A stretch of 40,967 nt of DNA from the IMG/VR virus record IMGVR_UViG_3300048578_000437, positions 1 to 40,967 of that record; one strand, written 5' to 3'. Origin of the DNA: a virus (taxonomy: Duplodnaviria > Caudoviricetes). The translations under genes and the position numbers were made by a program. The notes below the pieces were generated by a model. That model had not been told where the DNA came from. It was given only the letters and a program-made list of their open reading frames with translations, and ran no database searches. Positions 4,382-30,995 of the stretch are shown in pieces; positions within the stretch are counted from its first letter, which is position 1, and each line of letters begins with the position of its first letter.

Positions 4382-4812
4382 ACGCCCCGAACCGCTTCAA
4401 CCTGCCCCAGCCGGCGCCCACCGCGGGTGACGGCGCCGAGGTCTGGCCGGCCATCACCGAGGCGCCGGGCCTCGTGCTCCCCGACTGGCTGCGCGAGGAC
4501 ATGCGCGAACGCGACCGCGTCGGCCGCGAGCGCTACGGCACGCCGCTCCGCGTGTGGAACGGGCGCGACGCGGTCGTCGACGCGTACCAGGAGGCGCTCG
4601 ACCTCGTCGTCTACACGAAGCAGGCGCGCATGCGGCTGGGCCCGCCGGGCTTTCTCATCTCGCCGCTCTATCGCTCCGCGGCCTTCAGCCTCGACGCCGC
4701 TGTGCACCACGCGCTGCAGGTCGCCATCACGCTCGGTGAACTCGCGCGAGGCGCGCGCGGGGCTCCCGTGCCCACGACTCATGGTGAACTCGAGCACCGG
4801 AGGTCGTCATGA
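4378..4812 (+). CDS. Conserved phage protein, possible all-alpha NTP pyrophosphohydrolase (MazG-like)
   Basis: RDRVGRERYGTPL...DAYQEALDLVVY motif; AAGGAG SD. Confidence 0.65.
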   Translation: MNAPNRFNLPQPAPTAGDGAEVWPAITEAPGLVLPDWLREDMRERDRVGRERYGTPLRVWNGRDAVVDAYQEALDLVVYTKQARMRLGPPGFLISPLYRSAAFSLDAAVHHALQVAITLGELARGARGAPVPTTHGELEHRRSS

Positions 4813-5375
4813 AGTACGCCGCCGACACCTCCGTCTCCGTGTCCAAGTCGCGCGCGGAAATCGAAGACCTCGTCACGCGCGCCGGCGCCGTGCGCTTCTT
4901 CGCCGGCAACGAGGAGAACCGCGCCTTCGTCGGCTTCACGATGAAGTGCAACTTCAAGCCGTGCCCCGACTGCACGGGGCCGAAGCCGCTCCGCTTCACC
5001 CGCGAGTGCGGCGTCTGCGAGCGGAGCGGGAAGGTGCACGACAAGCGGAACGTGATGTTCGAGCTTCCGCTTCCGAAGCTCGAGGCCTTCCGTCTCGACG
5101 GGCGCCACAGGATGCGCCCCGCGGAGAAGCAGCACGAGGCGTGGGAGCAGGGCTGCCGAGCGTCCTGGCGCGCGCTCTTCCTCGCCATCAAGGCGAAGCT
5201 CGTCTCCGTCGAGTCCGGCGTGGAGAGCTTCGAAGAGGCGTTCCTCGCGCAGCTCGTCGTACCCACGGGTGACGGGCGCACCGAGCGCTTCAGCAAGCAG
5301 GCGGTGAAGGCAATCGCCGAGGCGTACCACGTGAACGGGCCCCCGGTGCTCATGCTCGGGAGCGGCCATGGGTGA
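4809..5375 (+). CDS. Conserved phage protein with inserted CxxC...CxxC zinc finger
   Basis: YAADTSVSVSKSRAEIE...WRALFLAIKAKL...FEEAFLA family motif; CPDC and CGVC insert. Confidence 0.8.
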   Translation: MKYAADTSVSVSKSRAEIEDLVTRAGAVRFFAGNEENRAFVGFTMKCNFKPCPDCTGPKPLRFTRECGVCERSGKVHDKRNVMFELPLPKLEAFRLDGRHRMRPAEKQHEAWEQGCRASWRALFLAIKAKLVSVESGVESFEEAFLAQLVVPTGDGRTERFSKQAVKAIAEAYHVNGPPVLMLGSGHG

Positions 5376-6315
5376 GAACAGCGGCATTCAGTGGACGACA
5401 CACACCTTCAACCCGTGGGTCGGCTGCCAGCGCGTGAGCCCGGGCTGCACGAACTGCTACGCCGAGAGCTACGACAAGCGCGTCGGCGGCGGCGTCGACC
5501 CGAAGGACGGCAAGAAGAAGCTGCGGTGGGGGCCGACTGCGCCGCGCGTGCGGACGGCGGTCTCGAATTGGCGGAAGCCGCTCGCGTGGGACAAGGCCGC
5601 GCGGGAGGCCGGGCGGCGCGATCGCGTCTTCTGCAGCAGCCTCGCCGACGTCTTCGAGGACCGGCCGGAGCTCGTCGACTGGCGCGAAGACCTCTTCGGC
5701 CTCATCGCGAGCACGCCGAGCCTCGACTGGCTGCTGCTCACGAAGCGGCCCGAGAACATCGCGCGGCTCTGGCCGAAGGCGATGGCCGAGCCGGGCGGCA
5801 AGGGGTGGCTCGCGTGCCCCGCGCCAGGCGCCTACTCGTGGCCGAACGTCTGGCTGGGCACCACCGTCGAGGACCAGCAGCGCGCTAACGAGCGCATTCC
5901 CGAGCTCGTGAAGGTGCCGGCGGTGGTGCACTTCCTCTCGTGCGAGCCGCTCCTCGATGCGGTGAGCCTCGCTCCCTTTCTCTCGTGGGAGACGTTCATG
6001 CAGCACGTCCACAAGCATGGGCCCAGCGGCCAGTGGTCGATCGACAGCGCCCGAAAGCCCATCGACTGGATCATCATCGGTGGCGAGTCGGGACCGGGGG
6101 CGCGCGCGTTCTCCATCGACTGGGCGCGCTTGCTCGTGAAGCAGGCGGGTGACGCCGGCGCAGCGCCGTTCGTGAAGCAGCTTGGCCGTGTGCCGTTCTC
6201 AACCTTCGCGTCTGGCTGCGACGAGTTCTTCGACCTGCGCGATCCGGCCGGCGGTGACATGGCGGAGTGGCCGCTCGACCTGCGAGTGCGCGAGTTCCCC
6301 CAGGTGAAGCCGTGA
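5368..6315 (+). CDS. Phage Gp37/Gp68 (DUF5131) family radical-SAM-like protein
   Basis: SGIQWTTHTFNPWVGCQRVSPGCTNCYAE, LLTKRP, FLSCEPLL, WIIIGGESG, FVKQLG. Confidence 0.93.
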   Translation: MGENSGIQWTTHTFNPWVGCQRVSPGCTNCYAESYDKRVGGGVDPKDGKKKLRWGPTAPRVRTAVSNWRKPLAWDKAAREAGRRDRVFCSSLADVFEDRPELVDWREDLFGLIASTPSLDWLLLTKRPENIARLWPKAMAEPGGKGWLACPAPGAYSWPNVWLGTTVEDQQRANERIPELVKVPAVVHFLSCEPLLDAVSLAPFLSWETFMQHVHKHGPSGQWSIDSARKPIDWIIIGGESGPGARAFSIDWARLLVKQAGDAGAAPFVKQLGRVPFSTFASGCDEFFDLRDPAGGDMAEWPLDLRVREFPQVKP

Positions 6316-6998
6316 GAAGCCTCCGTCGGCTCGTGAAAGAGCGTCCCATCCTCTTCTCGGCGCCGATGGTCCGCGCGCTCCTCGAGGGGCGTAAGACGCA
6401 GACTAGGCGCGTGGTGAAGCCGGGAACTCAGCTCGACAGCGACGGCCACTGCTTCTTCTGCGGACTGATGCCTGAGGTCGACGAACAGCACATCTGTCCG
6501 CCCGGGTTCCTGCCAAGTCGCTGCCCCTACGGCGCGACCGGCGACCGGCTCTGGGTGCGCGAGACGTGGGGTCTCCACGGCTACGGCGACTTCACCTGCT
6601 GGATGCGCGACTCGGTGAAGGGACGCAGCGAGGCCGAGCTGCGGTCTTCGTGGGAACTCGCGTACGCGGCCGACGCCGAGTCGGTCTACGACCACTGGCG
6701 CCCTTCCATCCACATGCCGCGTTGGGCCTCGCGCATCACGCTCGAGGTGACGGGCGTTCGCGTCGAGCGCCTGCAGGAGATCACCGAGGCCGCCGCGCGG
6801 GCGGAAGGCATCGAGCCCACCGCGCGGCACGACCTCTACGGCTGGCGCAACTACGGCGACACCGAGACCGCCGGCGACTCGTGCGAGTACTTCACGGACC
6901 CGCGCGAGTCGTTCCGCTCGCTGTGGGAGAGCATCAACGGCGCCGAGTCGTGGAAGGCGAACCCCTTCTGCTGGGTCGTGGAGTTCCGCCGTGTGTGA
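6312..6998 (+). CDS. ASCH/PUA-like phage protein
   Basis: KERPILFSAPMVRALLEGRKTQTRR...GDRLWVRETW...WRPSIHMPRWASRITLEV; GTGA overlap. Confidence 0.88.
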   Translation: MRSLRRLVKERPILFSAPMVRALLEGRKTQTRRVVKPGTQLDSDGHCFFCGLMPEVDEQHICPPGFLPSRCPYGATGDRLWVRETWGLHGYGDFTCWMRDSVKGRSEAELRSSWELAYAADAESVYDHWRPSIHMPRWASRITLEVTGVRVERLQEITEAAARAEGIEPTARHDLYGWRNYGDTETAGDSCEYFTDPRESFRSLWESINGAESWKANPFCWVVEFRRV

Positions 6999-7335
6999 CC
7001 TCTCCTACGAAGAGACGTCGACGGTCTACGAGGTGACGCGCATCAAGAAGGCGCGGAAGCCACACCAGTGCGCGACCTGCCGCCGCACCATCCAGCCTGG
7101 CGAGAGCTACGAGCGGCACGCCTCGCTCTACGACGGGCACTGGAGCGACGCGAACGCCTGCTCCGAGTGCGCGGCCGACATCGCCGAGTTCGGCAAGGCG
7201 CACCGCTTCACGCCATTCCCCGATGGCGCCGAGCACTTCATCGAGGGCTGCATCGACGGCGACGACGAGGCCGACAAGCGCTGGAAGGCGATGCTCGAGC
7301 GCATCAGGGCCCGTCGGCTTTCGGGGGCTCGCTGA
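6991..7335 (+). CDS. Zn-finger phage protein
   Basis: KARKPHQCATC...IQPGESY...CSEC. Confidence 0.8.
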   Translation: MCDLSYEETSTVYEVTRIKKARKPHQCATCRRTIQPGESYERHASLYDGHWSDANACSECAADIAEFGKAHRFTPFPDGAEHFIEGCIDGDDEADKRWKAMLERIRARRLSGAR

Positions 7336-8035
7336 TTGCTTCGGTCGAGGGGGGGGAAAGGAACGTCAGCATGAGCTGGGCGTCCTCTTCCGAGAGCATC
7401 TCCTTCGCCTTCAGCTCCTCGATGCACGCCGCCAAGCCAGCGGCGTGGTCATCGTTTCCGTGGAGGTGCCTCTTCCAGACCGAGAGCTCGGCTTCGCTGG
7501 TGAACGGGTATTTCGTTTCGCTCAGTTCGCGCGCTCTGCCGATGATGAACTCAGCGAGGTCAGCGCTCATGCGCGATTCCGGTACCGTCCAGTCTCCGGC
7601 ACCCGTGCAATCGACGTAGAAGCCTCCTTGCTTAAGGTCGTCCAGTCTCGGCGGGACCGGGTTGTCGAAGTTGAAGATCCTCTCGAAGTCCGGGAGTTGA
7701 AGACGCCCTTGCGCGATGGCGGTCCTTGCTACGTCGGTCATCTCTGCGAAGACGACCTTCGCCGTGTGGCTTCGGAAGCGTTGCCAGTGCGCCTTCAGCG
7801 TCTCCGGCGTGGATGCAACCAGGATGTCCATGATGACCGCCGCCTTCCCTGCTTCCTCGAGGGCAAGGATGCCCAGAGACCCAGCGCGGGCGTGGTGCCC
7901 GGCCTTGAGCAACAGGTCACCCTCAGCGACCAACTGCCGCGCGTTCTTCATCGACGCGGCGATTCCCGACGCCGCTTGAGCCGGGGTGAGCTCACCGCAG
8001 TACCGCTCCGTTCTCGCCTTCTTCTTCTCTCTCAC
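7304..8035 (-). CDS. AbiV-family (HEPN-like) abortive infection protein
   Basis: NARQL..E..LL, ILALEEAGK, SHTAK and LKQGGFYVD motifs; antisense moron. Confidence 0.82.
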   Translation of the reverse strand: MREKKKARTERYCGELTPAQAASGIAASMKNARQLVAEGDLLLKAGHHARAGSLGILALEEAGKAAVIMDILVASTPETLKAHWQRFRSHTAKVVFAEMTDVARTAIAQGRLQLPDFERIFNFDNPVPPRLDDLKQGGFYVDCTGAGDWTVPESRMSADLAEFIIGRARELSETKYPFTSEAELSVWKRHLHGNDDHAAGLAACIEELKAKEMLSEEDAQLMLTFLSPPSTEAISEPPKADGP

Positions 8036-8513: not shown

Positions 8514-9035
8514 CTAGCCGGGTGGAGCGACCTCAGGTGGTGCAGCACCGGGACCGGCGACCACGAGGTAGACGATGTACGCAACCAGAGCGAGCAAGCC
8601 GAAGCCGCCAACGCCGCCGACCCAAATCTTCACCGGAATGCCAAGGAACCTACCGGGCTCGCCGACGCTTATCGCCTTCAGGTTCGACTTCTTTGCCTTC
8701 AACTCGCCGTCGGTCACCTCGACGCCTTCGGCTGTCGTTCCTTCGAAACTCACTTTGGGCGGCTTCTTGCGAGCATCTTCACTCAAGGGCAATTCTCCAG
8801 AGGAATCCGGGGCAGGCTGGGCGAGAACGAGAAACAGATTCTGCGTGATCTGAGTATTCGTGAGCGTTGAGTCTTGGATGCTGACGAGTTCAGCGAGTGC
8901 GGTGCGGAATCGCCCCAGTTCGAAGCCGAGCGGCTGAAGGTTCGTCGGCTCGGCTGCTTGACGCTGAGCGCTTCCCTCAGGCTGCGCTAGTGCATCGACT
9001 GCGGCTTTTTTTTTTCGAAAACGACCTCGACCCAC
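8514..9035 (-). CDS. C-terminally membrane-anchored ORF, probably reached by -1 slippage from the upstream gene
   Basis: No in-frame ATG, no SD before its GTG; hydrophobic IWVGGVGGFGLLALVAYIVYLVVAG; overlaps the upstream ORF at an A10G run. Confidence 0.65.
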   Translation of the reverse strand: MGRGRFRKKKAAVDALAQPEGSAQRQAAEPTNLQPLGFELGRFRTALAELVSIQDSTLTNTQITQNLFLVLAQPAPDSSGELPLSEDARKKPPKVSFEGTTAEGVEVTDGELKAKKSNLKAISVGEPGRFLGIPVKIWVGGVGGFGLLALVAYIVYLVVAGPGAAPPEVAPPG

Positions 9036-9307
9036 GAGTCGTCGTCATAGGTCTCATCGCAGACTGGACACCGAGCCGGCAGCTCAGCAGGACTGCCGGC
9101 CCACTCATGATCCTGCGAACAGCGGATCTTCGTCTTCGAGCCGACGAAGCCCTGCTCTTCCAGAATGGCGAGCGCGGCCAACACGTCCTGGAGTGGCGTC
9201 TGGAACTCGTCAGCGAAGTAGTCAGGCCAAAGAACTCCCCAGCCGAGAGCTTCGGCACGGTCACGAATCCGCCCTGAAAGGGCGACGATTTCGCGTTGAG
9301 TCCGCAT
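8987..9307 (-). CDS. Winged-helix-like plus Zn-ribbon protein
   Basis: LAALAILEEQGFV, then CSQDH...CPVC; ends FEKKKPQSMH. Confidence 0.75.
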   Translation of the reverse strand: MRTQREIVALSGRIRDRAEALGWGVLWPDYFADEFQTPLQDVLAALAILEEQGFVGSKTKIRCSQDHEWAGSPAELPARCPVCDETYDDDSWVEVVFEKKKPQSMH

Positions 9308-9320
9308 ACCCGACCGGAGA

Positions 9321-10289
9321 CTAACGCTTGAGGGTGTCAAGAAGATGCCCCACGAGCCACGACATCGCCGACCGGCTCGTCTTGACCGGGAATTCTAGGT
9401 GGGTCGGCTTGTACTTGATCTTGAAGTTCACGCGACCGTGCTCCTCGAACCCGTCCGCATGCGTGTACGTGTAGTTGAAGGCTCTGGCGATACCGGGGGA
9501 CTGAGCGTGCTTCTTTACATCCTCGTCGGAAAAGTCGACCGGCTTGAGCCCTCCGCCATGAGAGATGCCCTCCATGATCACCTTCCCGTTCTTTCCCGAC
9601 GAATGATCAGTCGCGAACGCCGCGAGCGGCATCTTCAGCGCCTTCGTCATCTGATGGACGTGGGACTCCTTGAACTCGACCGCGGTGTAGGTTTCGGACT
9701 GGCCTCGTCCTGACTCCACAGGCGTCTCCCAGAGCCATTCGGAAAGCTGCCGAAGTGCCGCGCGGGAGTTCCCAGGAGACGAGTAGACACGCACAAGGCT
9801 GGTTCTTTTCGCCGGAACCTCGACCTCAACAGGAACGGTTTCCCAGCTGGTCTTCCGCTTCTCCTCCTGGCGAAAGGTTCGCTTGCGAAGAATGTGGATC
9901 GTGAATGCGACTCCGTCCTGAGTTGCGTGGACTCTCGCCACGCGTGCGGACAGAGAGTCAGGAACAGGGGTGGCCGCAATCGACTCGCCAATGCTCTTCG
10001 GCATCTTCGCGCCGTTTCTCTTCAGCGCGGCCGCGACTTGCGACTCGATGGCGCTCCACTGCCTTCCCTCGTGCAGGGCGTATTCCCAAATCCCGAGCGC
10101 GCGGCCGAACTCGAAGCTCCACTCGTGTTCGAGCCGGTACAGCTCATCGCCCAAGTGCTCGATAAGCTGCTCACGAGTCTCATTGGCCGCCGCATCGTCC
10201 TCGACGTGCCAGCCCTGAATGAGCTGCCCACGTTCCTTCGCCTCAACCCCTGCCTTCTTGAGCAGATGGTCCAAATGTAGATCGTTCAC
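9321..10289 (-). CDS. Hypothetical 322-aa protein, first gene of the accessory module
   Basis: GGAGGG SD before GTG; long ORF, visibly less GC-biased than the phage core. Confidence 0.8.
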   Translation of the reverse strand: MNDLHLDHLLKKAGVEAKERGQLIQGWHVEDDAAANETREQLIEHLGDELYRLEHEWSFEFGRALGIWEYALHEGRQWSAIESQVAAALKRNGAKMPKSIGESIAATPVPDSLSARVARVHATQDGVAFTIHILRKRTFRQEEKRKTSWETVPVEVEVPAKRTSLVRVYSSPGNSRAALRQLSEWLWETPVESGRGQSETYTAVEFKESHVHQMTKALKMPLAAFATDHSSGKNGKVIMEGISHGGGLKPVDFSDEDVKKHAQSPGIARAFNYTYTHADGFEEHGRVNFKIKYKPTHLEFPVKTSRSAMSWLVGHLLDTLKR

Positions 10290-10391
10290 GCCGCCCTCCA
10301 GAGGAGGCGGCAGAATGGATCACCGAAGGTGGGTAGTCCAGCTGGAGCGCAGGTTCGACATGTGACTGAATAGGTCAGCCATCCAACTGAA

Positions 10392-10423
10392 AGAGGCGCC
10401 GGCAATACGGCGCCGGCGCCTCT
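10392..10423 (-). terminator. Probable intrinsic terminator
   Basis: 12-bp stem AGAGGCGCCGGC/GCCGGCGCCTCT running into TTTCAGTT on the minus strand, just after the 10440 gene. Confidence 0.6.
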
Positions 10424-10439
10424 GGAATGCGAGTAGTGG

Positions 10440-10598
10440 TTACGCGGTCTTCTTCTTCCGATGCACCTTGCAAGGGAAGCACCACGCTTTGTGGCCGTAG
10501 GCTGCTGCGACCATCACCTTGCCGGTCCGCTTGTTGCGGTAAACCGGCGTGAAGCGACAGTACGGGCAGCCGATCAACTCTTCGTGCGAGGGGCCCAT
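10440..10598 (-). CDS. Small basic Zn-finger protein (52 aa)
   Basis: GAAGGAG SD before ATG 10598; CPYC...CFPC; the longer computed ORF is likely over-extended. Confidence 0.65.
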   Translation of the reverse strand: MGPSHEELIGCPYCRFTPVYRNKRTGKVMVAAAYGHKAWCFPCKVHRKKKTA

Positions 10599-10911
10599 GG
10601 GCGCTCCTTCGAACGAGGGGATCGACATTGGCGAGAGCGCGCGAAGGCGGAACGCCGGTGAGCCGAGCCCGCAGGCTGCGAGCTCGGCGACCAAGCCTAC
10701 GGAAGTCTGACGAAATGAACGAACTGAAGCCGCTGCATCGCTACCTCCCTGTCGGGCGCAGTTCCGTGCGCTTGCGGGGAGTTCGGGGTCGATATAGCTT
10801 CGACATCCCTGCCACGGGACGCGAGAACAGGATCTATTTCCGAACTCGAGTTGGCCGCCGCTGACCTCGAAGGTGCCTGGAAGCACCCCGCGGTTCAGCG
10901 GCGGCGTTTTT

Positions 10912-11388
10912 CTATCCTGCGACATCCTTCTTGAAGAGTTCGAACTGCCCGTCTCCCAGCCAACGGAACCGCGGACGCTTCACGTTACGGTCGCTTCCCG
11001 GAGAGCTGCGAAACACGGCCGTGTAGATCTTCGAGCCGCCGCGGGGTTCATCGGGGAGAAGCGCGGCTGCCGCTTCGGGAACCGAGTAGACGCCGTTGAC
11101 CGTCGGGTACCGCAAGCACCACGCGAGCACTCGTTCGGCCAGACTCGCATCCTCGGCATCTTCCAGAACGGTCTGAACCGGGCGATGCGCGGTGCGCTGA
11201 GCGACTGCTTTGGGCTTGGGCGCGACAGCCGTGTGGTTGGGGGCCTCTTCACGCCCTTCGCTCGCGTACAGCTCGTCGAGCAGGTCTTCCAACACGACCT
11301 TCCGGTCTCCTGGGCGGAGTAGGGCCAACTGCTCCGCGACCTGCTGACGGACCCGCCGGCGAGCTGCTGCATCAGGAAGAAGGCTCAT
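10912..11388 (-). CDS. Hypothetical protein with C-terminal winged-helix-like domain
   Basis: ATG 11388 just downstream of a promoter-like element; ends RFRWLGDGQFEL. Confidence 0.6.
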   Translation of the reverse strand: MSLLPDAAARRRVRQQVAEQLALLRPGDRKVVLEDLLDELYASEGREEAPNHTAVAPKPKAVAQRTAHRPVQTVLEDAEDASLAERVLAWCLRYPTVNGVYSVPEAAAALLPDEPRGGSKIYTAVFRSSPGSDRNVKRPRFRWLGDGQFELFKKDVAG

Positions 11389-11397
11389 TGGACGCGC

Positions 11398-11426
11398 AAC
11401 ATGACAACGCGGAATGCGCGGGTCAA
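11398..11426 (-). promoter_or_regulatory. sigma70-like promoter TTGACC-17-CATGTT
   Basis: Exact 17-bp spacing and extended TG, 9 nt upstream of ATG 11388. Confidence 0.5.
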
Positions 11427-11563
11427 GCATCAGGATGGCTTTTGTCGTCTTTGCCATGCAGGCACGGAACGCCCGTTCACTTGTCGGGGCTCAGAAGGCT
11501 TGACTCGCGCGCAGCGATGGGGATGGCGCATGGCCGCCCATCGTGAGGTCCCTGCGACAGTTC

Positions 11564-12112
11564 TCAGAACTCCCCCGAGACGCTCACGCCGGCCGCGCCG
11601 AGGGTGTTGCCCCAGACGCCCGCGGAGACCCCGCCGAGGATGCGGCGCTCGACGCTGACGCCGAGGACGAGCGGACCGGCGATGGGAAGTAGCGGGTCAC
11701 GCAGCGAGGCGCCGATCTGCACGCCGAGTCGCCAGTCCGGGAGCTGCGTGACCTTCCGTTCACCGACCTGCTGAGCCAGAGATCTCGTGCTCGATCTCGT
11801 GTCCGAGCTGCCGGCGGCGGTCTCGCGCTCGCGCGTCTCGGTGACCGTGGCAGCGGCCAGCACCACGCCGCCATCGGGGGCCGGCAGCAGGACGGGGGTG
11901 CTCGTGGTGCGCGTGTCGACGGCGCGCGCGGTCTTCCAGCGCACGACCTCGACCGTCTTCGTGCGCCACTCCGTCCGGTACTCGACGCGCTCCTCGACCT
12001 CGGCAGGGGCGCTGAAGCGGCCGGCCGAGTAGCCCGCGGCAGCGACGAGCACGAGCGCCAGGGCGAAGAGCCCGAGCTCGCGCGCGCGTTGCTTCTGTTC
12101 GTCGGTGAGCAT
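11564..12112 (-). CDS. Spanin-position lysis protein: N-terminal TM, periplasmic linker, C-terminal beta-strands
   Basis: Follows the endolysin; LGLFALALVLVAAAGY; C-terminus AAGVSVSGEF. Confidence 0.75.
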   Translation of the reverse strand: MLTDEQKQRARELGLFALALVLVAAAGYSAGRFSAPAEVEERVEYRTEWRTKTVEVVRWKTARAVDTRTTSTPVLLPAPDGGVVLAAATVTETRERETAAGSSDTRSSTRSLAQQVGERKVTQLPDWRLGVQIGASLRDPLLPIAGPLVLGVSVERRILGGVSAGVWGNTLGAAGVSVSGEF

Positions 12113-12127
12113 TCCAGTGGCGCTCCC

Positions 12128-12628
12128 TCAGGTCGCGATGTGCCGCTCGAGGTCGGCAGGGAACGCGTACGCGGGCGCGGGGAAGGGCAGGCGCGTCCAC
12201 CCCTTGAGCTGGTGGTGCGGCTGGTCCCCGTTGGGGAAGGACTTACCGAGCCAGCGACCGCCCCACTCGAAGCCGAGCGCTTCGCTGAACTCCCCGATCT
12301 CCTTGAACTTCGCGCGGAGCTCGGCAGGCAGCTCGTCCCACCCGAACCAGCGCCGCGCCTTGCCGCCGAAGGACACCGGCACGTAGAGCAGGAACTCGAT
12401 GGGCACCAGGTCGAGGGCGGCTGCGCGGCCGTGCGGCGTCTTGATGAGCGAGCCAGCGGCCGACATGCCCCCGCCGCTCAGCTTCGCCTGCAGCGCCTCG
12501 TCGGCACGCAGGCCTCCGTGCAGCGCGACGGCGATCTCGAAGGGGCCCCGGGCGATCCACTGCCGCGGCAGGTCGAGCATGCGCGGGTGCACGCCGCGGG
12601 CGCGCTCGAGGTGATGGACCTTGCTCAT
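12128..12628 (-). CDS. Endolysin, peptidase M15 family (L-Ala-D-Glu type)
   Basis: GLR...Q, TPHGRAAALD, EWGGRW...DQPHHQL zinc-ligand motifs. Confidence 0.85.
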   Translation of the reverse strand: MSKVHHLERARGVHPRMLDLPRQWIARGPFEIAVALHGGLRADEALQAKLSGGGMSAAGSLIKTPHGRAAALDLVPIEFLLYVPVSFGGKARRWFGWDELPAELRAKFKEIGEFSEALGFEWGGRWLGKSFPNGDQPHHQLKGWTRLPFPAPAYAFPADLERHIAT

Positions 12629-12804
12629 CTGACGGCCTTCAGCTCGGGGTGCGTGATGCGGTTCCGGTCGATGCCGACCCGACGCTTGAGCTCGTCGATT
12701 CGGCTCGTGATGACCTCGCGCGTTTCCTTCAGCGTCTCGGCGGCCTGGTCGGTGGCGCTCTGAGACTGCTCCACCAGCCTGCGGTAGGTGTCCTTCACGC
12801 TCAT
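12625..12804 (-). CDS. Small coiled-coil protein in the lysis cassette (59 aa; not in the ORF track)
   Basis: MSVKDTYRRLVEQSQSATDQAAETLKETREVITSRIDELKRR...; ATGA overlap with the endolysin. Confidence 0.7.
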   Translation of the reverse strand: MSVKDTYRRLVEQSQSATDQAAETLKETREVITSRIDELKRRVGIDRNRITHPELKAVR

Positions 12805-12807
12805 GCG

Positions 12808-13173
12808 TCAGCCTCGCTGTGACGGGTACGCGCGTTCGACGACCTTCTCGACCACGTCCATCGAATCGAGCGCCTTGATGGAGAGCTTCACGCTCTCGCC
12901 TTGAATTCGCATCGCGTTCTCGCTCGAGCGCACCGAGTCCTCGAGGCGGCCGCGGGACTCCTTCCGCAGCTCGAGGAACAGGTAGACGACGACGCCAGCC
13001 TCCACGCACGCGATGACTGCGAGCACGTAGGTGACGGTGCCGGTTGCCAGCTTCTCGGCGGCATCGAGGTTCAGCACCGGCTGTGCGTAGGCAGCCGCGG
13101 CGAGCAGCAACAGCCCGAGCACCAGCCAGCGGCCGGGCCTCACCCCCTCGAATGAAGCCCGGCCGCTGACCAT
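12808..13173 (-). CDS. Putative holin
   Basis: Two hydrophobic segments plus a charged tail, upstream of the endolysin; GAGGAG SD. Confidence 0.65.
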   Translation of the reverse strand: MVSGRASFEGVRPGRWLVLGLLLLAAAAYAQPVLNLDAAEKLATGTVTYVLAVIACVEAGVVVYLFLELRKESRGRLEDSVRSSENAMRIQGESVKLSIKALDSMDVVEKVVERAYPSQRG

Positions 13174-17392: not shown

Positions 17393-19689
17393 GGGTCTTC
17401 ACCCGTCGGGTTGCCCGAGCGCTGACCGCGGCGGCGCTTCGCCTCACGCCGCGCGTCCTCCGACAGGGCGGCGAGGGTGTCGGAGTCTGTGGTGATGTCG
17501 CCGTTGAAGATGATGGTCGTGTTCGAACCCGCCGGCGCCGGCGCCATGAAGCCGAGGTTCTGCGCGCCGAGCCCCATGTCCGCCTGGTAGCGGGCGTGCG
17601 CGATGCGGTACCCGTTAGGGACGTTGCTCAGGCTGGTCGCGACCTTCTGTGCCGACTCCGCCGCCTCGTTCTGTGCGGCAGCGAGCTTGAGCGTGCTCCC
17701 GGCGAGGTCCATGTTCGCCTCGTCCTGAGCGGCGGTGCGCGACCACATCGCCTCGACGAGCGCCTTCATCTTCGCGGACTCGGCCTTCGCCGCCTCGTCC
17801 CCGAAGGACGCCGCGAGCTCGTTCAGCGCGATGATGATGCCGAGGAGCACGGTCGCGACGACCTTCAGGATGCCGGCGATCAGCTCGATGATCGGCCTCA
17901 GCGCCTGGAAGATGACGCCGACGACCTTGCCGATCACCTCGAGCACGGGGGCGATGGCCATGAGCACGTCGCCCACCGCGTAGAGGATCGGCGCGAGGTA
18001 GTTCACCAGCTTGCCGATGTTCTCGAAGAGCGGCTTCAGCGCCTCGAATACGGGCGCGACGATCTGCGTGACGACGCCGAGCACGTTGGTGAGCGCGTCG
18101 AAGATGGGCTTCACCAGCGGCTCGATCATCGCGGCGATCTGCTCGATGAACTCCATCGCGACGCCGAGGAACTGGAGAGCGCTCGCGGTCTTCTTCGCGA
18201 TCTCCATGAAGGCCGCGATGATTGCTCCCCAGATGCCGCCCGACTGCGCGCCCTCGACGATGGAGCCGACGAGTTCGCCGACCGCGCCGAGCAGCTGCTT
18301 GCCCATCGAGGCGACCATCGGCCCCATGCGCCGGCCCCACACCTCGAGCTGCGCCCCAACGGAGTAGGCGCCCTTGAGCCCGTCGCGAAGCTGGCGCTGC
18401 GCTTCACCCCAGCTCGAGGCCTCGACGGCCCCCTGCTTGATGGTCGTGTTCTCTGCGTTGAAGTCCCGGCGCTCCGCCTTCGAGAGCGTGCTGGTGTCGC
18501 CGCTAACCCGCGCCATCGCCATCCGCTGAGCGCTGGCGGCCGCTTCCTTCTCAGCCGCGAGCCGACGCTTCATCTCCTGCCGGAGGACCTCACTCGCGAC
18601 TGCCTGCTGCGACATCTCGCGCGCCGCCTTGTTCGCCTCGTCGACGAAGGGCTGCACGTTGACCGTGCTCCGCATCGCCTGCGTGAGCGCGTCATTCGCG
18701 GCACCGCTCTTCGCCGGCCCCTGAGGCATGCCGCGGCCGAGGCCGATGGGCTTCGCCGTGCTGGGGCTGAAGAGCTTGTCGAGCCCGAGCTCCTTCTTGA
18801 TGAGGCTGAGCTCCTCGCTCAGTCCGTCGACGATCTGCTGGCCCACGGTCTTCCCGAAGCTGAAGGCCTCCGAGAAGAACGAGCCGCTCTGCAGGTCCTT
18901 CCACAGCCCGGCGAAGCCTTCACGCAGCGCGCCCGTGTCGACCATCTTCTTGCCGGTGATGTTCTGGACGGCGTCGACCACGTTCAGGAGCGCGTCGACG
19001 AAGACGCTCGCGCCCTTCACGGCGTAGCCCCAGACCTTCTGGATGAAGTTCGCGAACTGGGAGAACCCGTCGTGGAGCCAGTTCAGCACCTCGGCCGTCG
19101 CGTCCTGAATGCCGCCCCAGTTCTTCCGCCAGGCGCGATGGAGCAGCACGACGACGGCCACGACCGTGCCAAGGGCGAGGGCGATGCCGATGATGGGCCC
19201 GAGCCCGATGGCAGAGATCATCCCGAGCGCGCCCTTGAGCACGCCGAACGCGCTGCCCGCGACGCCCGCGAAGAGAGAGAAGGCCTTCGCGGCAAAGGCG
19301 ACCTGCACCGCGAGGATCGCGAAGTTGCTGACGTGTTTCTTCATCTCGGGGTCGAGCCCCGCGACGACTCCGGCCGCCTGCCTGAACATCGCCGTCAGCT
19401 CCCGCACCGCGGGCAAGAGCATGTCGGCGACCTGCACTGCGAGGAGCTTGGTGCTCTGCTCGAGCCCGTTCATCGCGCGCTTCGTGGGCCCGTCGACGCC
19501 CGAGGCCAGCTTCACCGCGGCGATGCCCACGCCGGCGAGAACGCCGGAGAACTGCGCGACGTCGGCCGAGACCTTCTTGGCCTCCCGCGAGAACCGCTCG
19601 AGGTCACCGAGCGCGCGTTGGAGACCCTTCGACCAAGCGCCGGTGCGCGCGGCCAGCGAGGCGTACATGCTGCCGATGTTCAGCGCCAT
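17389..19689 (-). CDS. Tape measure protein
   Basis: MALNIGSMYASL start, Ala/Gly-rich helices, hydrophobic segments, periodic P..AL repeats, follows the chaperone. Confidence 0.92.
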   Translation of the reverse strand: MALNIGSMYASLAARTGAWSKGLQRALGDLERFSREAKKVSADVAQFSGVLAGVGIAAVKLASGVDGPTKRAMNGLEQSTKLLAVQVADMLLPAVRELTAMFRQAAGVVAGLDPEMKKHVSNFAILAVQVAFAAKAFSLFAGVAGSAFGVLKGALGMISAIGLGPIIGIALALGTVVAVVVLLHRAWRKNWGGIQDATAEVLNWLHDGFSQFANFIQKVWGYAVKGASVFVDALLNVVDAVQNITGKKMVDTGALREGFAGLWKDLQSGSFFSEAFSFGKTVGQQIVDGLSEELSLIKKELGLDKLFSPSTAKPIGLGRGMPQGPAKSGAANDALTQAMRSTVNVQPFVDEANKAAREMSQQAVASEVLRQEMKRRLAAEKEAAASAQRMAMARVSGDTSTLSKAERRDFNAENTTIKQGAVEASSWGEAQRQLRDGLKGAYSVGAQLEVWGRRMGPMVASMGKQLLGAVGELVGSIVEGAQSGGIWGAIIAAFMEIAKKTASALQFLGVAMEFIEQIAAMIEPLVKPIFDALTNVLGVVTQIVAPVFEALKPLFENIGKLVNYLAPILYAVGDVLMAIAPVLEVIGKVVGVIFQALRPIIELIAGILKVVATVLLGIIIALNELAASFGDEAAKAESAKMKALVEAMWSRTAAQDEANMDLAGSTLKLAAAQNEAAESAQKVATSLSNVPNGYRIAHARYQADMGLGAQNLGFMAPAPAGSNTTIIFNGDITTDSDTLAALSEDARREAKRRRGQRSGNPTGEDP

Positions 19690-19692
19690 CGC

Positions 19693-19899
19693 TCACCACC
19701 CCTTGCCGCGCTTCGACTTCGCCTCGCGCTTCGCCTTCTCGAGCGCCTTCTTTTCGTGGTCGGCCTTGATGCTGAGGTACGCGCGCCACTCGACGAGTTC
19801 CCCAGGGGGCAACGTCTCCTCGAGCTCGAAGACCGGGAGACCAAGGAGCTCCGCGATCTGGAAGAGCGAGACCCGAACGGGGTCCGCCTCTAGTTTTTT
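19693..19899 (-). CDS. Tail assembly chaperone frameshift extension (gpT part of gpGT)
   Basis: -1 frame after A AAA AAC reads LEADPVRVSLFQIAELLGLPVFELEETLPPGELVEWRAYL...GKGW* and stops 3 nt before the TMP start. Confidence 0.85.
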   Translation of the reverse strand, partial: KKLEADPVRVSLFQIAELLGLPVFELEETLPPGELVEWRAYLSIKADHEKKALEKAKREAKSKRGKGW

Positions 19900-20432
19900 T
19901 TCGCCTCCTCCTCCGCGCTCACGTTCATGAGCGGGTAGGCGAACTCGAAGATGTCGTCTGCGAAGCCGCCGACGAGCTGCTGACGGAGCGCCTGTTTGTC
20001 GGCGTCCGTGTAGACCTTGATGTTCGTGTCGGGCACGTAGGTGAGGGCGACGACGGTCTCGACCTGCAGCTCCGCCATGTCGATCTTCTCGCCATCGGCG
20101 CCGGTCACGCCGGCCGCCTTGAAGATGGAGGCGCGGAGCTTGATGCTCGGCTCGCGGACCTCGACCATCACCGGAGTGCCATCTGCCTTCAGCATCGGCG
20201 GGTGCCGGTACTTCTTCACTTCCTGCGTGAGCGGCTGTCCGTCGTCGCCGAGCACCGGGTTCTTCTCCGTGTCGAGCACGGGCTCACGCTTGGGCTGACC
20301 TTCCTCGTCGAGCACCACCTCGAGCGCGCGGGGCTTCGACGCGTCGCGGATGGGCACGAGCTTCTTCCGCATCTGGCGCGCGGGCGCACCGAGGGTCATC
20401 TGGCGCAGCAGGTCACGTTCGAGCGTCGACAT
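19890..20432 (-). CDS. Tail assembly chaperone (gpG-like)
   Basis: Position before TMP; ends EEEAKKN* over the slippery site. Confidence 0.85.
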   Translation of the reverse strand: MSTLERDLLRQMTLGAPARQMRKKLVPIRDASKPRALEVVLDEEGQPKREPVLDTEKNPVLGDDGQPLTQEVKKYRHPPMLKADGTPVMVEVREPSIKLRASIFKAAGVTGADGEKIDMAELQVETVVALTYVPDTNIKVYTDADKQALRQQLVGGFADDIFEFAYPLMNVSAEEEAKKN

Positions 20433-28101: not shown

Positions 28102-29577
28102 TCAGCTGAGCGACTTCGCCCACGGTGGGTCGGCTCGCTCGGGCTCGACGTCGATCACGAGGTCCGCGTCCTCTTCGTCGTCGAGCTTGCTCGGCTTGTC
28201 GCCAGGCTCGAGCTGCGCTGGCGCCTGGCCCGGGAGCGCGTCCGGGTACTTCCCAGAGAGTTCAGGCTTGGGCTCGAAGCCGGCCTCCGCGCGCCACTCG
28301 TTCAGCTCGAAGGCGCGCGGCTGCGCCTTCATCACCTCGAGGCGATGCGACTTGTCCTCGGGCTCGTTCATCTCGGCCTCGAGCACAGCAGCGTCGCCGC
28401 CGGGGTACTTCGTCAGCAGCTGCGAGGCGATCTCCGCGCGAAGGAACTGCACACGCGGGTGCTCGACACCGACGACGAACATGTAGAACGCGGAGTCGAT
28501 CGTCGCTCGGTTGCTGTCCTCGATGATGCCGATCACCTCGGGCGGCACGCCGAAGACCTGCACGCAGGTGTCGCGCTCCATGCGGCGGAGCTCGACGAGC
28601 TGCTGCTCGCGGAACGCCGTGTCGAGCTTGACCGCGTTGATCTTCCCCGAGGCGAAGTGAGCGCGATGGGCGTTGTGGACTCCGCGGTGCGCCGCCTCCC
28701 ACTTCGCGCGCGCCTCCTCGACTCCCTTGCCCCCGGCTTCCTCGAGGCCGACCATGATCGACGGTGTTGCGGAGTTGAAGAACCAAGTCTTGATGTACTT
28801 CGCTGCGAACTCGTCGGTCTCGAGCTCGTCGCCCAGGCTCTCGGCGATGCCGCTGCCTCGACCGTACGGGGACGCGGGATCGACGTCGCGGAACCACAGC
28901 ACGGCCTTCGGATCGACCTTCATCTGCAGGCCGCCGTAGGTCACGAGGAAGTAGGGCGAGGTGTTGTTCGGGACCTGCGTCACCCAATGAGGAGGCACCG
29001 GGTAGACGCTGCTGGGCTGGCCCTCTGCGTCGAAGGCGACCAGCCAGAAGGCCTCGCCTTTGATGTCGAGCCAGATCTGCGTGACCTTCAGCGCGACCTC
29101 GCCCGACATGAACTCGTTCGGCTTCGCCAGGAGCTTGAGGAGCGGGTGGTCGACGACCTCGCGAAGAACGCCCGCGCGCTGCAGGCTGCGCCGGTGCGCC
29201 GCGCGCACCTTCCAGCTTCCGCTCTGGAGACGGTGGTCGCGCACCATCCGGTCCTGGCCCCAGCGCCACACGGGCGGCAGTCCGTCTCGCGACTCGCGGT
29301 GGAGGTCGATGGTCCTCGAGCGCGCGGGCAGTTCGGCGCGCGCGTAGATGCGCCACTGCGTCCCGGCGACCGCGCGCGCGATGCGGCTCGTGACCGCTCG
29401 CAACCAGGGCGAGAGGTTGTACATCTGGATCAGCTCGAGCGTGCCGCGCTTCGGTGGCCCACGCCCGCCGGTGCCCGAGGCGAGGAGCCCGCCTTCGAAG
29501 TTCTTCGCCGTGAGCGGGCCGGGGGCCGGCGCCGCTGCTCGGCTGAAGTAGCCCTTCACCTTGTCGAGCAAGCCCAT
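28102..29577 (-). CDS. Portal protein (HK97 family)
   Basis: DHPLLKLLAKPNEFMS, GEAFW, WFFNSATPS, FGVPPEVIG, NEWRAEAGFEP; start MGLLDK. Confidence 0.93.
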   Translation of the reverse strand: MGLLDKVKGYFSRAAAPAPGPLTAKNFEGGLLASGTGGRGPPKRGTLELIQMYNLSPWLRAVTSRIARAVAGTQWRIYARAELPARSRTIDLHRESRDGLPPVWRWGQDRMVRDHRLQSGSWKVRAAHRRSLQRAGVLREVVDHPLLKLLAKPNEFMSGEVALKVTQIWLDIKGEAFWLVAFDAEGQPSSVYPVPPHWVTQVPNNTSPYFLVTYGGLQMKVDPKAVLWFRDVDPASPYGRGSGIAESLGDELETDEFAAKYIKTWFFNSATPSIMVGLEEAGGKGVEEARAKWEAAHRGVHNAHRAHFASGKINAVKLDTAFREQQLVELRRMERDTCVQVFGVPPEVIGIIEDSNRATIDSAFYMFVVGVEHPRVQFLRAEIASQLLTKYPGGDAAVLEAEMNEPEDKSHRLEVMKAQPRAFELNEWRAEAGFEPKPELSGKYPDALPGQAPAQLEPGDKPSKLDDEEDADLVIDVEPERADPPWAKSLS

Positions 29578-29600
29578 GGCCGAGGAGTAGCCCGGTGCCG

Positions 29601-30995
29601 TCACACGAAGGCGAAGGCCGGGGTGACCATGAGCTCGTGCAGGCCCCAGCACATGGCGTCGGTCCGGTCGTCGCGCCGACCGTTCACCCCGGTGAAGGTC
29701 TTCATCTGAGCCTCGAGCTTCGGGTGCTCTCCCACGAGGTGCACCTTTCCCTGCTCGTAGAGCGCGGCGATCGGCTCCGCGCGCTTCGTCTTCCCGCGCA
29801 TCGCGCGCACGGTCTTCACGGGGAGCGAGTCGTCGACGGTGCGGAGCGTGAACTCGACCATCTCGCCGCCGACGTTCACCTCGGCCACGACGGCGTCGGC
29901 CTGGAACTCGTGGAAGGTCGCGGCCACGCGCCGCGCCCACTGGTCGGGCGTGCCCTTCATCGAGCGGTCGGCAAGCACGTAGCCGTGATCGTTCGCATCG
30001 AGGCCGACCACGATGATCCCCGTCTCGTCGTCGCCGCCTGAGGTCTGGGTCGGGTCGACCGCAACCACCACGCGCACCAGCTCGGGAGCGCGCGCGACGC
30101 GGGCGGCAAACACCTTGACCATGTCGAAGATGCCGGCTGACGCCTCGAGGATCTCGCCGCCGAGCTCCTGTTTGCCCAGTCGGCTGTTGCCGTAGAGCCG
30201 GGTGACGGTATCGATGAAGTTGGCCGCGAGGTTCGCCTGGTTCTCGTAGGTGTTGCCGCGGGTGACGAATGTCCCGGGGTCCTTCATCAGCTTGATGAGG
30301 AACTCGTGCGGCTTCGGCGTGCCAGTCACGACGGAGCGCGGCTTCTTTCCGAGTCGGAGCCCGAGCTGGAACTGTGCCCAGACCTCGTCGGGATTGACCC
30401 AGCTCATCGGCTCGTCGCCCCAGCCGAAGTCGTGCTGCGGTCCGCGGAGGCGCTCGGGCTCTTCGGCCGAGAAGAGCGTCGCGCGCGCGACCTCGTGCCC
30501 CCCGCGCTTCCAGGTGACGCGCCGCTTGCTCGGCTCGTAGTGCGCCTTGAACCAGGGCGGGCAGACGGCCAGCAGTCCGCTGTCGCCCTCGACCATCGTC
30601 TCTCGGGCGTCCGCCGCGGTGGGCGCGATCAACGCGATGCGGTGCGCGTTCCCGGACTCGACCTGGTCCCGCACGGTCTCGGCCCCGGTGCGCGTCTTTC
30701 CGAAGCCACGGCCGGCGAGGATCAGCCACGTGTTCCAGTCGCCAGGAGGCAGGAGCTGCGAGTCGCGCGCCCAGAGCCCAGCCCAGTCGTAGAGGAAGGC
30801 GAGGACCGCGGAGTCAGGAAGGGTCGCTATCAGCTGCTGCAGCTCGCTCGGCGTGAGCAGCTTCAGCAGGTGGTGCGGACGCAGGTGCTGGCTCAGCGCC
30901 AGCCCCTGTTCCAACGCTCGATCCTCCAGCGCCGCCCGGACGTCCGATGCCAGCCAAGAGCTTGCCGAGCTTGTCGTTGAGGAGCTTTCGAGCAT
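29601..30995 (-). CDS. terL: Terminase large subunit (start uncertain)
   Basis: AGRGFGKTRTGAE Walker A, GWGDE Walker B, VVAVDP and DDRTDA nuclease motifs. Confidence 0.95.
   Translation of the reverse strand: MLESSSTTSSASSWLASDVRAALEDRALEQGLALSQHLRPHHLLKLLTPSELQQLIATLPDSAVLAFLYDWAGLWARDSQLLPPGDWNTWLILAGRGFGKTRTGAETVRDQVESGNAHRIALIAPTAADARETMVEGDSGLLAVCPPWFKAHYEPSKRRVTWKRGGHEVARATLFSAEEPERLRGPQHDFGWGDEPMSWVNPDEVWAQFQLGLRLGKKPRSVVTGTPKPHEFLIKLMKDPGTFVTRGNTYENQANLAANFIDTVTRLYGNSRLGKQELGGEILEASAGIFDMVKVFAARVARAPELVRVVVAVDPTQTSGGDDETGIIVVGLDANDHGYVLADRSMKGTPDQWARRVAATFHEFQADAVVAEVNVGGEMVEFTLRTVDDSLPVKTVRAMRGKTKRAEPIAALYEQGKVHLVGEHPKLEAQMKTFTGVNGRRDDRTDAMCWGLHELMVTPAFAFV

Follow-up and report, generated by a model that had tools for sequence, protein, structure and literature searches.

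The window, which is the whole 40,967-nucleotide stretch analyzed here (IMGVR_UViG_3300048578_000437, positions 1-40,967; Duplodnaviria; Caudoviricetes), carries on its minus strand a cassette in which a run of adenines separates the second gene from an out-of-frame tail. The position of this run is under selection across diverged homologues, the site being fixed at 18-41% ORF1 identity and against the codon bias of the cassettes. The run very probably yields a fusion of the ORF2 protein to the tail. From structural models and sequence comparison, we propose, as an evenly balanced proposition, that the cassette is a mobile anti-phage system resembling Rex and GAPS4, with an RdgC-like ring as sensor, a winged-helix/zinc protein as adaptor, and an interchangeable tail, attached by slippage, as effector; taken separately, a transcriptional route to the fusion is probable and a role in defense reasonably likely. 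An earlier note, made from the sequence letters, had read the region as three unassigned genes forming a candidate anti-phage complex whose stoichiometry is set by recoding; its observations were real in part, and its interpretation is partly supported. The features are as follows.

10392..10423, minus strand: intrinsic-terminator-like hairpin upstream of the cassette (z -4.85).
10291..10312, minus strand: hairpin over the ORF1 Shine-Dalgarno (SD) sequence (z -2.1).
9321..10289, minus strand: ORF1, 322 aa; four-helix domain at the N terminus (about residues 1-57) together with an RdgC-like fold; predicted to dimerize as a DNA-binding ring (sensor).
8987..9307, minus strand: ORF2, 106 aa; winged helix whose wing carries a C-x3-H...C-x2-C insert, a likely zinc ribbon; predicted adaptor.
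9006..9015, minus strand: A10 run, putative slippage site; the sole A/T run of at least 9 in the window.
8514..9005, minus strand: ORF3 tail of 163 codons, read in the frame entered with one added A; the ORF2-tail fusion would have 264 aa.
8514..8786, minus strand: likely stand-alone 90-aa tail protein, with an internal SD and a TTG at 8786.
8556..8612, minus strand: predicted single transmembrane helix near the tail C terminus (Kyte-Doolittle 19-residue mean 2.37).
7304..8035, minus strand: AbiV-family HEPN gene, a neighbor outside the conserved module.

The three packed minus-strand frames described earlier are present in the sequence (ORF1, 10289-9321; ORF2; ORF3, 9035-8514), and the best ORF2 start is the ATG at 9307, 13 nt past the ORF1 stop. 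ORF3 exists as a frame but is better read as the continuation of ORF2 in a shifted frame, with its separate SD and TTG at 8786, than as a third gene; its GTG at 9035 falls within ORF2, immediately before the A10 run (9015-9006). As had been claimed, the cassette is less GC biased than the phage core (GC 0.60, against 0.68 for the window), with GC3 values of 0.76, 0.69, and 0.63 for ORF1, ORF2, and ORF3 and of 0.87-0.97 in five of six core genes (0.75 in the sixth). Under a codon model built on core genes, the best of the six frames was the gene's own for ORF1, ORF2, and ORF3 alike. The gene said to lie next door is indeed AbiV (PF18728, E 2e-34; TIGR04498, E 2e-29), but it lies 479 bp past ORF3, with a 64-aa plus-strand ORF between. 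The upstream terminator is real (stem 10414-10395; 0 of 200 shuffles equally stable). The hairpin said to cover the first SD is supported in the window (6 of 200 shuffles) but was not seen in six relatives at the picked starts, themselves uncertain (z -0.9 to +0.9). The letters of the suggested promoter, TGGACT-17-CATTCT, are present, but the site fell short of the scan threshold and was no better than chance; the window holds 50 sites equal to it, and a conserved promoter was sought among the relatives and not found.

The AF2 model of ORF1 is confident (pLDDT 95.4). Foldseek, which the earlier note had recommended for the 322-aa protein, gave RdgC as the best fold match of this model (E 1e-5), and the VIA comparison with RdgC aligned 212 residues (Z 11.6, rmsd 3.7). 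On the model we confidently assign residues 58-322 to the RdgC fold, with an extra N-terminal helical domain, and this predicted fold fits the DNA-sensing role suggested earlier. A shared RdgC fold alone shows no function, which counts against our main reading. ORF1 has 54 remote relatives in addition to its own record; the RdgC Pfam matched 0 of 51 family members at E values up to 1, and the family profile (A1) found no RdgC chain among PDB sequences at E values up to 10. The same 51 members gave just scattered single weak matches in Pfam and PADLOC, and ORF1-3 had no match in Pfam, PADLOC, NCBIfam, or PHROGs, bearing out the statement that no named family is recognizable; PF26110 is missing from the Pfam set used, and these Pfam blanks therefore say nothing on homology between ORF1 and GAPS4b. 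By its ESM Atlas features, ORF1 is similar to clusters with GAPS4b_N in 23% of members (score 0.94; recognition 1640, which is below the bar and makes this a lead only). Word-index protein searches with ORF1 returned itself alone, or itself and P0047, and tblastn against plasmids and phages gave no match. Pattern scans of viral, metagenome, and genome contigs confirmed no relative; such scans need near-exact peptides and do not prove absence.

The ORF2 model (AF2, pLDDT 81) matches winged helix-turn-helix structures at Z 8-10, and residues C63, H67, C80, and W92 are invariant in all six aligned sequences; ORF2 is likely, from its model, a winged helix carrying a Cys/His insert that would form a zinc ribbon. 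A search with the ORF2 profile matched the N-terminal part of a DUF5939-cyclase protein (E 4.7e-5; Atlas TM 0.70), and Atlas structures place ORF2-like domains in TIR and SIR2 proteins (TM 0.56-0.62, a lead only). Because such domains stand in frame within signaling and defense proteins elsewhere, we counted them in favor of an adaptor-effector fusion. The likeness is to the N-terminal region of DUF5939 (PF19363), but the DUF5939-cyclase gene has no poly-A run, and neither ORF2 nor its relatives match PF19363.

Genome searches for ORF1 relatives covered 1,830 genome slots in total, the large ones scoring 5-46 first-look candidates per genome, and found strong relatives, mostly 18-41% identical, in seven genomes. 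The gene co-occurrence asked about in the earlier note was borne out: an ORF2 relative directly follows ORF1 in six of the seven, and a tail follows ORF2 in all eight copies. In G275, ORF1 and ORF2 are on separate contigs, and no ORF2 start lies within 127 nt past ORF1. Two weakly matching loci, neither with an ORF2 match, were dropped from the counts: L070 (E 4e-4), which has a transporter-like gene next to it, and L071 (E 2e-5), which matches through the N-terminal helices only in a 1,233-aa frame. Among scored candidates, no ORF1 relative was found in 89 genomes of the order of G002 or in 121 of the phylum of G005, and no strong match in 201 of the phylum of G003. Two related phage contigs, found via the capsid protein, had no ORF2 match. 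Mobile settings include a prophage in the window and in L065 and a position beside a tRNA-Asp gene in L072; the L064 cassette is flanked on both sides by copies of a 443-bp gene end (95% identical), and L073 and L074 hold near-identical cassette copies with differing neighbors.

The recoding site invoked in the earlier note proved to be conserved. Seven of the eight ORF2 copies, the window included, carry a run of 9 or 10 A's (A10 in the window, A9-10 in six of seven relatives); its position matches that of the window in L062, L063, L067, L068, L069, and L077, 6-10 codons past the conserved Trp and 6-8 codons ahead of the ORF2 stop. L077 had no part in the ORF2 profile and still carries A9 at the predicted place. 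In the eighth copy, L066, the run is absent and ORF2 and the tail are fused in frame; the sequence past this junction weakly resembles the shifted L067 tail (12 of 1,000 shuffles; wrong-frame controls, 0 of 72). A/T runs of at least 9 occur once in the 41-kb window, once in every run-bearing locus covered (L064, L065, L067, L073, L074, and L077; 2-19 kb), and not at all in 393 kb of background loci (L001-L060). Since the cassettes favor AAG over AAA for lysine (104 codons versus 27) and AAA-AAA encodes none of the 10 Lys-Lys pairs of the ORF1 genes, the run is not a mere by-product of lysine coding. Independent run-bearing lineages number six, a small sample, with L068 and L069 (97% identical) counted once. 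Reaching the tail takes one added A in six runs and a change of -1/+2 A in one (L077).

The tails themselves, 147-236 aa after the run, differ between loci. The window tail frame is open for 163 codons and the other two frames for 5 and 8. Likeness in the first 70 aa was detected in 3 of 21 tail pairs, none involving the window tail; a resemblance between the window and L077 tails seen by eye was not significant (571 of 1,000 shuffles). The claim of a membrane anchor holds for the window tail, with its one predicted transmembrane helix, and for four of the seven distinct tails, but three have none; the tails of relatives have 0-2 transmembrane segments at a Kyte-Doolittle value of at least 1.6. 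No recognized toxic domain was found in the tails, and no defense family matched ORF1, ORF2, or any tail. Several tails have N/G/S/I/V-rich stretches, and the L063 tail, which matched nothing among families and the PDB, reads as a small domain of helices that ends in a short C-terminal segment prone to beta structure. On a crude amyloid composition score, four of five tails reached 19-24 and 14 control pieces 11-18; the window tail, at 17, was not above controls.

Slippage could in principle occur in DNA rather than in mRNA, the run being an on/off switch thrown by slipped-strand mispairing, with the fusion made only in a subpopulation of changed run length and the sequenced copies all off. 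We consider such phase variation unlikely. It would suit run lengths of 9-10 with two out-of-frame states (six +1 and one -1/+2), an off state would be favored if the fusion is toxic, and an in-frame form does exist (L066). The tail is, however, in frame in none of the six independent run-bearing lineages (a chance of about 0.09 if states are random), one state is common to five of the six, and zero-frame ORF2 always ends 6-8 codons past the run, resembling a short product that is kept.

If recoding is real, its product could still serve something other than defense, as a DNA-binding regulator tethered to the membrane and controlling either recombination or a prophage lysis-lysogeny switch, like RdgC or RexA alone. 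The enrichment near defense genes asked about in the earlier note did not appear: 45 neighbors of the relatives included no AbiV, no other defense family, and no NLR, PADLOC found nothing in eight neighbors without a Pfam match (none better than E 0.014), and the PADLOC check that the note had advised gave no match for the cassette proteins. The missing defense neighbors and known toxic domains are in keeping with a regulator, as are the best fold match, RdgC, and the finding in PMC11077077 that RexA can tip the lambda switch without RexB. A scan for lysis genes found none. We nevertheless judge such a role quite unlikely, in that at least three relatives' loci have no phage genes nearby and the cassette is patchy (7 genomes in 1,830 slots), low in GC, mobile, and diverged, with swapped tails, which we infer to be the pattern of a conflict system.

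A programmed -1 ribosomal frameshift on an A-rich heptamer, like that of E. coli dnaX, would make the same fusion as polymerase slippage. The window looks suited to it, having in frame A_AAA_AAG, which is the most shift-prone heptamer in E. coli according to PMC5009743, and a modest SD-like pairing upstream (-6.6 kcal/mol), and six of seven runs require the -1 frame. But a terminal in-frame AAG is found in the window run alone, upstream pairing is weak in five other copies (-2.5 to -4.6 kcal/mol), and no stimulatory 3' structure stands out past the run in the six copies tested (z +0.7 to -1.7), so that the cassettes differ from the E. coli dnaX type in having the heptamer in the window only and a 3' stem-loop in none of six. 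A heptamer requires 6-7 A's, yet every run has at least 9, and in L077 the shift would have to go the other way, barring a one-base error in that assembly. Ribosomal frameshifting thus appears distinctly unlikely; polymerase slippage is favored because one run needs -1/+2 A.

Very improbably, no fusion is made at all, the tail being a separate gene read from its internal start, while the run couples translation, pauses ribosomes, or is the decaying remnant of an ancestral fusion. An SD and a start do lie within all six tails tested (the window, with an SD duplex of -6.4 kcal/mol, L062, L063, L067, L068, and L069), and the stretch from run to start is poorly conserved; in all six, however, that stretch is open in the tail frame for 30-84 codons, with its coding signal kept in the window, L066 is fused, and a remnant run would not outlast divergence to about 20% protein identity. 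That sequencing error has split one gene has a negligible chance: homopolymers are error-prone, but the frame is lost at one and the same point in seven separate assemblies, one a 13.2-Mb single contig, and the presence of the run itself would remain unexplained.

Under the slippage-attached effector model that we prefer, a pair of ORF1 chains would encircle DNA as a closed ring and react to DNA that is aberrant or entering the cell, in the way suggested for GAPS4b and, as regards DNA binding, shown for RexA, and ORF2 would dock on the N-terminal helical domain of ORF1, like the predicted docking of GAPS4a on GAPS4b. Slippage would add or remove A's in the mRNA, giving a short adaptor and an adaptor-tail fusion in a set ratio, and the internal start would supply free tail protein. 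Upon sensing, the fused tails would gather and draw in free tail protein, in this cassette within the membrane, leading to growth stop or death of the infected cell. A bolder version, possible but doubtful, gives each locus three products: free adaptor, free effector read from the internal start, and a rare fusion, made by slippage, as seed. Adaptors clustered by rings on foreign DNA would let their fused tails nucleate the free effector, with amyloid-like motifs in several loci; slippage would replace the two-gene receptor/effector arrangement of NLR amyloid signaling, determine the level at which the system fires, and offer a universal attachment point where unrelated effectors can be exchanged whatever their frame.

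If the preferred model is true, the RdgC-ring DNA sensors would gain a new branch alongside RexA and GAPS4b, and a bacterial immune system would be using conserved transcriptional slippage to control the amount of an exchangeable effector, a case that we did not encounter in the literature searched. The run would offer a test of how cells hold a self-harming sensor-effector link under threshold, and breaking, shortening, or frame-locking it should shift protection and toxicity oppositely. Annotation of such cassettes would miss the functional fusion, leaving the effectors invisible to defense-system finders. No description of the cassette was found in mostly non-subscription papers on RdgC, anti-phage defense, slippage or frameshifting, and Myxococcota, where supplementary tables of frameshift surveys could list the family; the available part of GAPS4 Dataset S1 (PMC13748975) contains "Myxococcales" zero times.

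Comparison with known systems places each part of the cassette near a precedent. According to PMC5009743, slippage in bacteria is efficient on runs of 9 A or T, and PMC3711429 interprets dnaX genes that consist of two ORFs and carry A9-10 as cases of transcriptional slippage. The cassettes resemble the slippage genes treated in the two papers (Thermus-type dnaX; Shigella mxiE, spa33, and mxiA) in having a run of 9-10 A or T at a two-frame junction and putative short and extended products, but differ in their candidate defense setting and in a second frame that encodes an exchangeable tail and contains a start of its own. The N/G/S/I/V-rich stretches of several tails are reminiscent of Bell/BASS amyloid-signaling gene pairs, as is the L063 tail, which on reading its sequence is laid out like the Bell proteins of bioRxiv 10.1101/2020.01.06.895854; differences are the missing NLR neighbor, the missing family match, and a window tail that scores no higher than controls, and that preprint reports Bell as absent from Myxococcota.

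RdgC, described in PMC11077077 as a regulator of recombination, shares its overall fold with modeled residues 58-322 of ORF1. ORF1 differs from RdgC in its 9-11% identity without an RdgC sequence-profile match, its extra N-terminal helical domain, and its dedicated partner genes. The Kiwa protein KwaB may also have a fold related to RdgC; the literature searched contained nothing relevant on that link. In GAPS4 (PMC13748975), GAPS4b is predicted to form a dimeric ring around DNA, GAPS4a is predicted to dock on its helical globular domain, and the system is borne by mobile elements. The cassette is similar in having a protein of about 300 aa (the size of GAPS4b being inferred from Atlas clusters) with a helical domain, in the ORF1 monomer model a helical N-terminal domain plus the RdgC fold, and in its putative sensor-effector logic and mobile carriage. 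It differs in that no adjacent or fused PD-(D/E)xK nuclease GAPS4a was encountered, the HGxD-SxK motif being absent from ORF2 and tail sequences, and in that the ring gene comes first and its partner is a 106-aa winged-helix/zinc protein plus a tail behind a poly-A run.

The effector RexB is a multi-pass membrane channel with four helices. Its partner RexA, of phage lambda, is an RdgC-related dimer for which DNA binding is shown in PMC11077077. The cassette likewise pairs a prophage-borne RdgC-related protein, predicted to bind DNA, with a putative membrane partner. ORF1 is, however, much nearer to RdgC (Z 11.6) than to RexA (VIA Z 4.0, rmsd 15.6) and has no PHROG or Pfam match; no multi-pass channel gene is adjacent, the window tail having one transmembrane segment and no family match. 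Unlike RexA-RexB, the cassette has an adaptor gene and a putative slippage site between its sensor and its membrane part, and its tails are interchangeable.

A homopolymer near the end of the second cassette gene is well supported as a conserved recoding site with swappable tails, a surprising arrangement. The three frames and lower GC content that the earlier note ascribed to this module were both found in the window:

10289-9321, minus strand: ORF1 (322 aa)
9307-8987, minus strand: ORF2 (106 aa), most likely starting at the ATG at 9307
9015-9006, minus strand: ten A's near the end of ORF2, the sole A/T run of at least 9 in the window
to 8514, minus strand: ORF3, the out-of-frame tail and candidate effector

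One A added to this run would carry ORF2 into the ORF3 frame, which stays open for another 163 codons; the other two frames close after 5 and 8. A candidate site for the recoding postulated earlier is conserved in related loci: A9 or A10 is kept in seven of eight ORF2 copies (window included), 6-10 codons past an invariant Trp and 6-8 codons ahead of the stop, and behind each run lies an open out-of-frame tail of 147-236 aa. The eighth copy, at locus L066, is a natural 253-aa in-frame fusion without the run. Locus L077 served as an out-of-sample test, and the run was present. No run of at least 9 occurs in 393 kb of background loci (L001-L060), and the ORF1 genes favor AAG (104) over AAA (27) for Lys, with AAA-AAA in none of 10 Lys-Lys pairs.

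The frame would be restored by one additional A in six copies and, in L077, by one A fewer or two more. In bacteria, runs of 9 A/T are efficient slippage sites whose mRNAs gain several bases (PMC5009743); slippage is also how dnaX genes with two ORFs and A9-10 are read (PMC3711429). Run length, the two shift directions, and the absence of any 3' stimulator that stands out near the ORF2 runs lead us to favor polymerase slippage from the sequence pattern. Phase variation of the DNA itself is a possible reading of the same run. A -1 ribosomal shift is also possible, but the run length, the opposite direction needed in L077, and the lack of a conspicuous stimulator count against it.

An ORF1 profile search across 1830 genome slots, which overlap between searches, gave strong matches (E 1e-55 or better) in seven genomes, all in groups around genomes G001 and G002; the weak matches L070 and L071 were dropped. 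An ORF2 relative directly follows ORF1 in six of the seven, so the lack of co-occurrence that the earlier note named as refuting was not seen. In the seventh (G275), no ORF2 start occurs in the 127 nt between ORF1 and the contig end; a separate contig (L077) carries an ORF2 relative. ORF1 identity between loci is 18-41%, except for L068/L069 (97%).

The tails are mostly unrelated between loci, and none has a family match. Likeness over the first 70 residues was found in just 3 of 21 pairs, one joining the in-frame L066 tail to the shifted L067 tail, and in 0 of 72 wrong-frame controls. The proposed membrane anchor fits the window tail, which has a TM-like segment, but such segments occur in just four of seven distinct tails (window, L062, L066, and L077). 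By sequence reading, the L067/L068 tails share an N/G-rich stretch and a helical domain, and the L063 tail closes with a small helical domain whose own end is beta-prone. Behind the membrane tail of L077 (976-1850, plus strand) are two further short genes, one lipoprotein-like; a Pfam scan of one of them gave no match. An SD and start lie 31-85 codons into all six tails tested, and the L077 tail has an ATG at about the same distance, so the tail is probably also produced as a free protein. The idea of amyloid-like tails, prompted by the Bell/BASS paper (10.1101/2020.01.06.895854), is weak, because on a crude composition score four of five tails exceeded 14 control pieces and the window tail did not.

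ORF2 is predicted to be a winged helix (pLDDT 81; Z 8-10 against many wHTH domains) with a Cys/His insert, in agreement with its earlier description as a wHTH/Zn-ribbon protein; C63, H67, and C80 of the insert are invariant in all six aligned copies. The wHTH/Zn protein PF0610 was the third, nonsignificant, Foldseek match. A DUF5939-cyclase protein (L078, 451-1866, minus strand) opens with a related domain, a hint as to the nature of the DUF5939 N terminus, and TIR and SIR2 proteins are among the Atlas structure neighbors. In view of these relations, ORF2 may serve as an adaptor that is commonly attached to an output domain.

ORF1 was named by no family library scanned (the Pfam set being one without the GAPS4b_N family), in line with the earlier note, in which no named family was recognized. 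Besides its own record, a full HMMER scan returned 54 proteins at 22-40% identity (55 in all); 50 of the 54 were aligned with ORF1, and four short ones were omitted. In the confidently predicted structure (pLDDT 95.4), residues 58-322 resemble RdgC (Foldseek E 1e-5; Z 11.6, rmsd 3.7, 212 aligned), well above CENP-L/Iml3 (Z 7.0 and 6.4) and then, weakly, RexA (Z 4.0); residues 1-57 model as a four-helix domain barely probed by the fold search. RdgC is a DNA-binding ring dimer whose fold RexA shares (PMC11077077). A resemblance to GAPS4b_N clusters in the ESM Atlas offers no more than a lead.

Family searches found integrase, portal, capsid, tail, endolysin, and methyltransferase genes in the 40,967-base record. 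That the phage is a prophage is probable, given that ORF1's own protein record lies on a contig of 328,550 bases. The DUF5131 gene, best matched in an Archangium MAG, and the named ORF1 relatives (from a Myxococcaceae MAG and Archangium violaceum) suggest a myxobacterial host. The cassette's surroundings, apparently a typical accessory-gene slot, and other features are as follows:

4809-7335, plus strand: flanking genes
7304-8035, minus strand: AbiV-family HEPN gene, about 70 C-terminal residues longer than the profile match
10440-10601, minus strand: 53-aa ORF with two CxxC pairs, ending just before the terminator and SD-covering hairpin; weak Pfam match only (InsA zinc ribbon, E 0.055); reminiscent of Mu Com, a zinc-finger translational activator
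10912-11457, minus strand: 181-aa ORF of lower GC3 (0.69) between lysis genes and cassette, matchless in family searches; possibly another accessory gene
11564-13009, minus strand: flanking lysis genes
19894-19901, minus strand: A8 run in the last codons of ORF 20432-19890, with a tape-measure gene downstream at 19689; we take it to be possibly a tail-assembly-chaperone frameshift
28102-30729, minus strand: 875-aa frame with no portal match before about residue 384-520; its N terminus is extended, or the ORF was called too long

The upstream terminator (z -4.85) and the hairpin over the SD (z -2.1) were recovered; the promoter-like match is equaled at 50 other window sites. AbiV was correctly identified, but it lies 479 bp off, past an opposite-strand ORF, and is peculiar to the window.

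The cassette is mobile. It occurs in prophages (the window, and L065 ahead of terminase genes), next to a tRNA-Asp gene (L072), and, in L064, between 95%-identical 443-bp copies (~7370-7810 and 10050-10490) of the 3' end of an enoyl-CoA hydratase-family gene, where it may be moved or lost by recombination; no integrase was among the L064 neighbors scanned. Near-identical cassette copies have different neighbors. Enrichment near defense genes, a check named in the earlier note, was not seen: none of 45 neighbors of relatives matched a Pfam defense family, and a PADLOC scan of eight gave nothing better than E 0.014, which counts against a defense reading.

No description of the family, or of slippage in a defense cassette, was found in the mostly open-access papers searched. 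Defense is a candidate role for the cassette. In the proposed mechanism, ORF1 would form a ring dimer that senses DNA and docks ORF2, slippage at the run would attach the tail, a free tail protein would also be present, and the outcome would be killing or arrest. A DNA-encircling ring has likewise been predicted for GAPS4b, whose helical globular domain is the docking site of GAPS4a in that prediction (PMC13748975). On this proposal the cassette would resemble RexAB and GAPS4 in pairing an RdgC-type ring sensor with an effector, but it lacks their defining partners, and we therefore file it under neither.
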